Sequence record: MZ617138.1
Strand: one strand, 5' to 3'
Length of the DNA stretch: 410 bases
Source: a phage
The notes under the pieces are model-generated. The model was not told the origin of the DNA. It saw only the letters and a list, made by a program, of their open reading frames with translations, and ran no database searches. Positions 1 through 410 of the stretch are shown piece after piece; the stretch's first letter is position 1; each line of letters opens with the position of its first letter. A program made the position numbers and the translations under genes.

Positions 1-410
1 AGCGGTGATACATTGATGGTCTGCTGACTGCTGATGTGATGATTTTCGACATTGAAGACGCGATGAACCACTATGACGTGGCTGGCGAGTATTCCAACCA
101 GCTAGGTGAGGCTCTGGCCATCGCTGCCGACGGTGCGGTTTTAGCTGAAATGGCTATCCTGTGTAACCTTCCAGCTGCTCCAATGAGAACATTGCTGGCC
201 TAGGCACCGCCTCCGTACTGGAAGTTGGTACTAAAGCTGACCTCAATACCCCGGCTAAACTGGGTGAAGCAATCATTGGCCAATTGACCATTGCTCGTGC
301 GAAGCTGACCTCCAACTACGTTCCTGCTGGCGACCGTTACTTCTACACCACGCCTGATAACTACTCTGCAATCCTCGCGGCTCTCATGCCCAACGCCGCC
401 AACTACGCGA
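1..410 (+). CDS. Major capsid protein, T7 gp10A-like (HK97-fold capsid of T7-like podophage), internal fragment truncated at both window edges. Frame is interrupted twice as sequenced (apparent 1-nt deletions near 11/12 and 183/184), so it may be a pseudogene or carry sequencing errors.
   Basis: Hand translation. Frame 1, 1-11: SGDT. Frame 3, 12-182: IDGLLTADVMIFDIEDAMNHYDVAGEYSNQLGEALAIAADGAVLAEMAILCNLPAAP. Frame 2, 185-409: ENIAGLGTASVLEVGTKADLNTPAKLGEAIIGQLTIARAKLTSNYVPAGDRYFYTTPDNYSAILAALMPNAANYA. These align colinearly with T7 gp10A recalled from memory (TIDGLLTADVLIYDIEDAMNHYDVRSEYTSQLGESLAMAADGAVLAEIAGLCNVESKYNENIEGLGTATVIETTQNKAALTDQVALGKEIIAALTKARAALTKNYVPAADRVFYCDPDSYSAILAALMPNAANYA). 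Spacing between conserved blocks is preserved once one base is restored at each break. No database search was run. Confidence 0.85.

Follow-up and report, generated by a model that had tools for sequence, protein, structure and literature searches.

The stretch of phage DNA analysed here (sequence record MZ617138.1; 410 nt, called the window at its full length) belongs to gene 10A, encoding the major capsid protein, of a T7-like phage in the Kayfunavirus group (K1F/EcoDS1), and covers an internal fragment of this gene (codons about 91-226). The window matched 223 phage records by megablast and 1,272 by blastn, and all of these matches lie in capsid genes, major or minor. The best match on the DNA level was EcoDS1, followed by Penshu1, vB_EcoP_F, SH3 and K1F; identity to known phages reached at most 92.7%, the value for EcoDS1, with none above 93%. 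In EcoDS1, the matching region lies inside gene 10A flanked by the scaffold gene 9 and the tail gene 11, and the gene order scaffold (gp9), capsid (gp10) and tail tube (gp11) is present in the relatives, the window itself comprising only 410 nt. The translation corrected by one N put in after base 178 matches the Pfam family PF21703 (Gp10A-like) with 133 aa over profile positions 35-167 without a break (E 1.4e-46; 159.8 bits at a cutoff of 27), and the family match was also obtained by tblastn with EcoDS1 gp10A and with T7 gp10A. Some 20 complete phage genomes, each roughly 39-40 kb in size, encode capsid proteins 97-99% identical to these 133 residues. The proposal of the initial annotation that the DNA belongs to a gp10A-type capsid gene is borne out by tblastn with EcoDS1 as well as by the alignments. 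The features discussed below are collected in Table 1.

Table 1. Position of the two frame breaks and of the adjoining coding segments and stop codons in the window
Feature	Position	Strand	Details and basis
Region of break 1	1..11	+	A GCG GTG AT- AC- (then ATT) versus GAG AAA GTG ATT ACC ATT in relatives; TT reduced to T, CC to C
gp10A-like coding segment, frame 3	12..178	+	EcoDS1 residues 94-149; the second Ala codon (GCN) opens with bases 177-178
TAA in frame 2, upstream limit of the frame switch	164..166	+	Read directly
Site of the missing base	178..179	+	GC^TCC versus GCATCC in relatives (GCTTCC in a CR44b-like genome); MAFFT, gap scans, BLAST
gp10A-like coding segment, frame 2	179..409	+	EcoDS1 residues 150-226; starts TCC AAT GAG AAC = S N E N
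TAG in frame 3, exposed by the missing base	201..203	+	Frame 2 there reads CTA GGC (Leu-Gly); read directly

Among further database entries, an ENA contig (P0001) shares 92% DNA identity with the window and has the base at the break present. A word-indexed protein search returned mostly fragments and no relative closer to the window. Short T7-like capsid fragments on contigs of 278-605 nt labelled Cutibacterium acnes, Escherichia coli and Enterobacter hormaechei (P0002, P0006, P0008 and P0011) are probably phage DNA contaminating bacterial assemblies. The NCBI assembly contig LZQQ01000005.1 (GCA_001684115.1; L087), which with 38,484 nt is as long as a whole T7-like phage genome, has its capsid gene split into 214 + 123 aa. 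It stems from contamination by a phage or from co-assembly, and contains a frameshift or else a variant that was left unannotated. The record MT350292.1, named 'Enterococcus phage EFA-1', contains a Kayfunavirus capsid gene with 91.3% identity to the window, a value shared by SH3 and CLB_P1, which are phages of Citrobacter and E. coli, and its Gram-positive host label looks doubtful.

No single uninterrupted capsid frame runs through the window, the homology leaving frame 2 for frame 3 near base 10 and returning to frame 2 at base 179. Upon translation of the three forward frames, frame 3 gave CNLPAAPMRTLLA, ended by the TAG at 201-203. From 162 to 203 this frame reads tgt aac ctt cca gct gct cca (CNLPAAP) followed by atg aga aca ttg ctg gcc TAG (MRTLLA and the stop), and up to the TAG it translates as ...AILCNLPAAPMRTLLA. 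Frame 2 contains the TAA at 164-166, is open thereafter from 167 to 410 with the translation PSSCSNENIAGLGTASVLEVGTKADLNTPAKLGEAIIGQLTIARAKLTSNYVPAGDRYFYTTPDNYSAILAALMPNAANYA, and reads ...PSSCSNENIAGLGTASVLEVG... in this part. From the CN codons (162-167) to the EN codons (185-190), 17 nt are counted in the window versus 18 nt in T7 (LCNVESKYNENIEGLGTA, NC_001604) and in all 25 of the 25 close relatives examined. The frame-aware alignment proposed in the initial annotation, performed as tblastn with EcoDS1 gp10A, resolved two segments that abut each other, of which the first covers window 12-179 in frame 3 with 98% identity to residues 94-149 and the second covers window 179-409 in frame 2 with 97% identity to residues 150-226 (joint E 1e-67, far beyond chance). 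The frame 3 peptides and their stop, the TAA in frame 2 with the open frame up to the window end and, by comparison with the T7 entry NC_001604, the CN to EN spacing had all been described correctly beforehand, as direct translation demonstrated, and tblastn, MAFFT and BLAST agree that the stretch from 167 to 200 is short of exactly one base, with frame 2 carrying the protein onward.

The position of the loss had, on the other hand, been given as 183/184, five bases downstream of the gap that is actually observed. Alignment of the window with four relatives by MAFFT introduced a single gap after window base 178 (GCTGC-TCCAATGAG in the window versus GCTGCATCCAACGAG), such that GCT GCA TCC AAC GAG (A A S N E) of the relatives faces GCT GC- TCC AAT GAG. 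When the gap was slid over all positions, the single best placement was after 178 against each of the four relatives EcoDS1, Penshu1, K1F and SH3, and the gap after 178 recurred in every BLAST alignment inspected. A scan of single-base insertions versus EcoDS1, counted along the entire coding stretch, equally had its single minimum of 29 mismatches after 178, with 32 mismatches at 183 or 184. Any base put in after 178 restores CNLPAASNENIA; an insertion at 183 or 184 yields CNLPAAP(N/I/S/T/M)ENIA instead, and the repair proposed in the initial annotation translates as CNLPAAPNENIA. Its supposed original 'cca aat gag' needs a proline at the fifth position of the heptapeptide at the break, which was found in 0 of 80 IMG/VR relatives; these have LPAASNE (23), LADSVNE (20), LPAASDE (11) or minor variants.

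What had been overlooked are the two codons (S N) by which the frame 2 match reaches upstream of 185. The T7 protein alignment begins its frame 2 segment at 182 with NEN, and because the T7 and EcoDS1 alignments both carry frame 2 upstream of 185, the Asn codon AAT (182-184) is intact in frame 2. The one base absent after 178 is the silent third base of an Ala codon in the sequence Pro-Ala-Ala-Ser-Asn-Glu-Asn, with A in 18 and T in 1 of the 19 relatives with >85% identity. The proper repair is GCT GCN TCC AAT (Ala-Ala-Ser-Asn), not CCA AAT (Pro-Asn). Placing an indel to the base needs the nearest relatives and not T7 alone.

The first bases of the window hold the other frame break. The GCG triplet found there is a Lys or Arg codon (AAA, AAG or CGT) in 85 of 85 relatives, and the peptides encoded by these 85 relatives at this place, TEKVITID, TEKTINID or TERTINID, do not agree with the window in any case. 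Rather than a single event, break 1 looks like a dense cluster of problems as seen at a poor-quality read start. A possible alternative would be three deletions in this region, from GAG CGN GTG ATT ACC. In the whole 410-nt record, three deletions, zero insertions and no non-silent private substitutions are counted.

Read in the corrected frame, the gene has the signature of purifying selection. The homologous stretch of the relatives is 396, 399 or 402 nt long, unbroken and always a multiple of three (80 of 80 viral-contig relatives). The window differs from 25 close relatives by 24-58 synonymous nucleotide differences and by 1-5 amino acids, with dN far below dS. The differences to EcoDS1 are located at third codon positions in 26 of 29 cases, 7 of 8 upstream and 19 of 21 downstream of the break. 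Seven differences are private to the window; each of them is silent, affects a third position and is located downstream of the break. As a real and old break would have left this downstream part without translation, the removal of the base is placed later than essentially all divergence of the lineage.

This timing bears directly on the idea of a decaying pseudogene, that is, of a T7-like capsid remnant in a cellular or degraded viral genome. Several frame-disrupting lesions together with the resulting in-frame stops within 410 nt would be the expected appearance of such a remnant; as the base was lost after essentially all lineage divergence, a decaying pseudogene is nevertheless excluded, and overall this origin is judged very improbable. 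Relaxed constraint is absent from the third-position pattern, the private changes and the dN to dS relation described above, and the chance that neutral decay places seven of seven private changes at third positions is about (1/3)^7. Furthermore, neither chromosomes of E. coli nor plasmids gave a match, and 185,579 species genomes contained no exact copy. The lineage is Kayfunavirus-like, with an otherwise ordinary capsid gene that is moderately diverged at silent sites.

Private differences accumulate at the 3' end, where five of the seven (385 C, 391 C, 397 C, 400 C and 409 G, all silent, third-position and towards G or C) fall into the last 26 bases. The final base 410 is A, with G in all relatives. 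The cluster at 385-410 could reflect real divergence or recombination of a patch, or it could derive from a primer (degenerate or GC-biased) placed on the motif LMPNAANYA; an exact match to this 3' end was found in none of the viral, metagenome or genome contigs. Two amino-acid changes that are rare in Kayfunavirus capsids, ACT at 230-232 (Lys to Thr, K74T) and AAT at 245-247 (Asp to Asn, D79N), occur together at the protein level in one IMG/VR genome (L005, IMGVR_UViG_2706795479_000001; 99% protein and 90% DNA identity) and are regarded as real lineage variants and not as errors.

Concerning the cause, on which the initial annotation is silent, the base missing at 178/179 is likely a technical artefact in a capsid gene of Kayfunavirus-like type that is otherwise ordinary and functional. 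The silent third base of the Ala codon would have been dropped by an error of the deletion type in base calling, assembly or PCR/cloning; its loss shifts the capsid frame from frame 3 to frame 2 and exposes the TAG at 201-203. The phage itself would very probably possess an intact gene 10A. With its three deletions, zero insertions and no non-silent private substitutions, the record looks as expected from a poor read start or from sequencing or consensus errors of the indel type, and not from mutation. A frame shift at 178/179 is absent from all 85 relatives compared, each of which encodes the stretch in one frame. Gene 10 is essential in T7-type phages, and a propagating phage therefore cannot carry the lesion uncorrected.

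Two of the deletions are located in TT and CC doublets, and at 178/179 the relatives have A (18) or T (1) with no run demonstrable. That in 18 of 19 close relatives the missing A sits between C and T, outside any homopolymer, counts against an artefact; the loss at 178/179 would match the homopolymer-undercall pattern of break 1 only if the lineage had GCT or GCC. The same observation, a missing base outside a homopolymer in most relatives and so no textbook undercall, speaks for a real, very recent one-base deletion, a capsid null allele in a defective genome copy encoding a truncated non-functional protein. Such an allele could derive from a non-viable molecule in the population, from a single-molecule read or clone or from passively carried phage DNA; the lesion is present in the sequence as given, and mutants of this kind arise constantly, so that a single read or clone would catch one. 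We nonetheless consider a recent null allele unlikely: three missing bases in 410 nt are far too many alongside zero non-silent private substitutions, the substitutions display no relaxed constraint and, as to a resident remnant, neither the 5,426 complete genomes of E. coli nor the 72,556 plasmids gave a megablast match.

Exact patterns (the break with an optional N, the indel-free signature 224-255 and the 3' end) recovered no further copy of this lineage from viral, metagenome and genome contigs, be it one that has the base or one that lacks it. Equally, neither of the ORF products of 55 aa and 54 aa expected from the record is among the recorded proteins. As no independent sequence of the lineage was found, we infer, rather than observe, the cause when an artefact is preferred over a very recent real deletion.

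Programmed recoding would offer a way to keep both the deletion and the capsid protein. In this scenario, either the ribosome (by a programmed -1 frameshift) or the polymerase (by transcriptional slippage) would change frame at about 179, as a 'saviour indel' correction or as a regulation like that of 10A/10B. Re-reading of base 179 (GCT, then TCC) would indeed give the exact ancestral A-S, T7-like gene 10 uses -1 frameshifting elsewhere (PMC5009743), and the 101 nt downstream fold somewhat better than shuffled sequences (z -2.3). However, there is no X XXY YYZ heptamer in 140-203, the local sequence being GCT GCT CCA ATG, the longest homopolymer in the window does not exceed 4 (<=4), and the known 10A/10B site is located about 345 nt past the window end. 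The shift is present in no relative, Rfam gave a noise hit only and no family match, and the consensus fold of 10 relatives is devoid of covariation (term -0.08 kcal/mol; 1 of 26 pairs compensated). Break 1, moreover, would be left unexplained. Taken together, recoding at 179 is extremely improbable. A hairpin is predicted in 180-280, with a closing helix CCAAUGA/UCAUUGG that depends on two window-specific silent changes (T184 and T277) and is not conserved.

In the boldest version, again extremely improbable, a viable phage would have fixed a real deletion and would still make its capsid because base 179 is read twice (GCU, then UCC) in an unconventional -1 shift with no canonical heptamer. 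If true, an essential structural gene would here have its 'saviour indel' corrected during translation. With an artefact as the preferred reading, both frame breaks would rather be flags of data quality than signs of pseudogenisation or recoding, and would carry little biological weight. In practice, a gene caller run on the record would give a false 55-aa 'protein' ending in PMRTLLA.

Among known systems, the Kayfunavirus gp10A genes of EcoDS1, Penshu1, K1F, SH3 and CR44b (Autographiviridae, Studiervirinae) are closest, with 92.7-91% nucleotide identity to window positions 11-408 and with the local motif CNLPAASNENIAGLGTA in common with the corrected window. Compared to these genes, the window has one base fewer at 178/179 and two fewer within 1-11, besides its seven private silent changes. 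A second parallel is the cultured Kayfunavirus OP272491 (Enterobacter phage 02_vB_Eclo_IJM), of the same genus and with the same gene affected, whose deposited whole genome of 39 kb carries 130 annotated features. Scaffold, capsid and tail-tube genes are all broken up there into several small CDSs, gene 10 into at least three pieces, and its gene 10 requires 13 gap openings versus EcoDS1 10A, compared with the three missing bases of the window. OP272491 (L086/L088, OP272491.1 16642-19890) appears to be an indel-rich record of a phage propagated in culture and, as such, provides a precedent for an artefact. That the window is itself part of OP272491 was ruled out, as the identity is 87% only and the lineage a different one.

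The other system to which the break invites comparison is the programmed -1 frameshift of T7-type gene 10, which operates on a heptamer with X_XX = G_GU (PMC5009743). In T7 (NC_001604), the slippery site GGTTTTC (G GUU UUC) is found close to the 3' end of 10A, at codon 340 (gene nt 1020); G GUU UUC is kept in EcoDS1 (L001 2252-2258), and the 10A/10B frameshift is annotated in Penshu1 and CR44b. The 10A/10B frameshift and the break in the window affect the same gene and have formally the same direction (-1). The break in the window, however, is located at about codon 149, has no slippery sequence and is not conserved, unlike the T7 site at codon 340 with its G GUU UUC, and whereas the T7 frameshift adds a minor product, the break in the window would abolish the major one.
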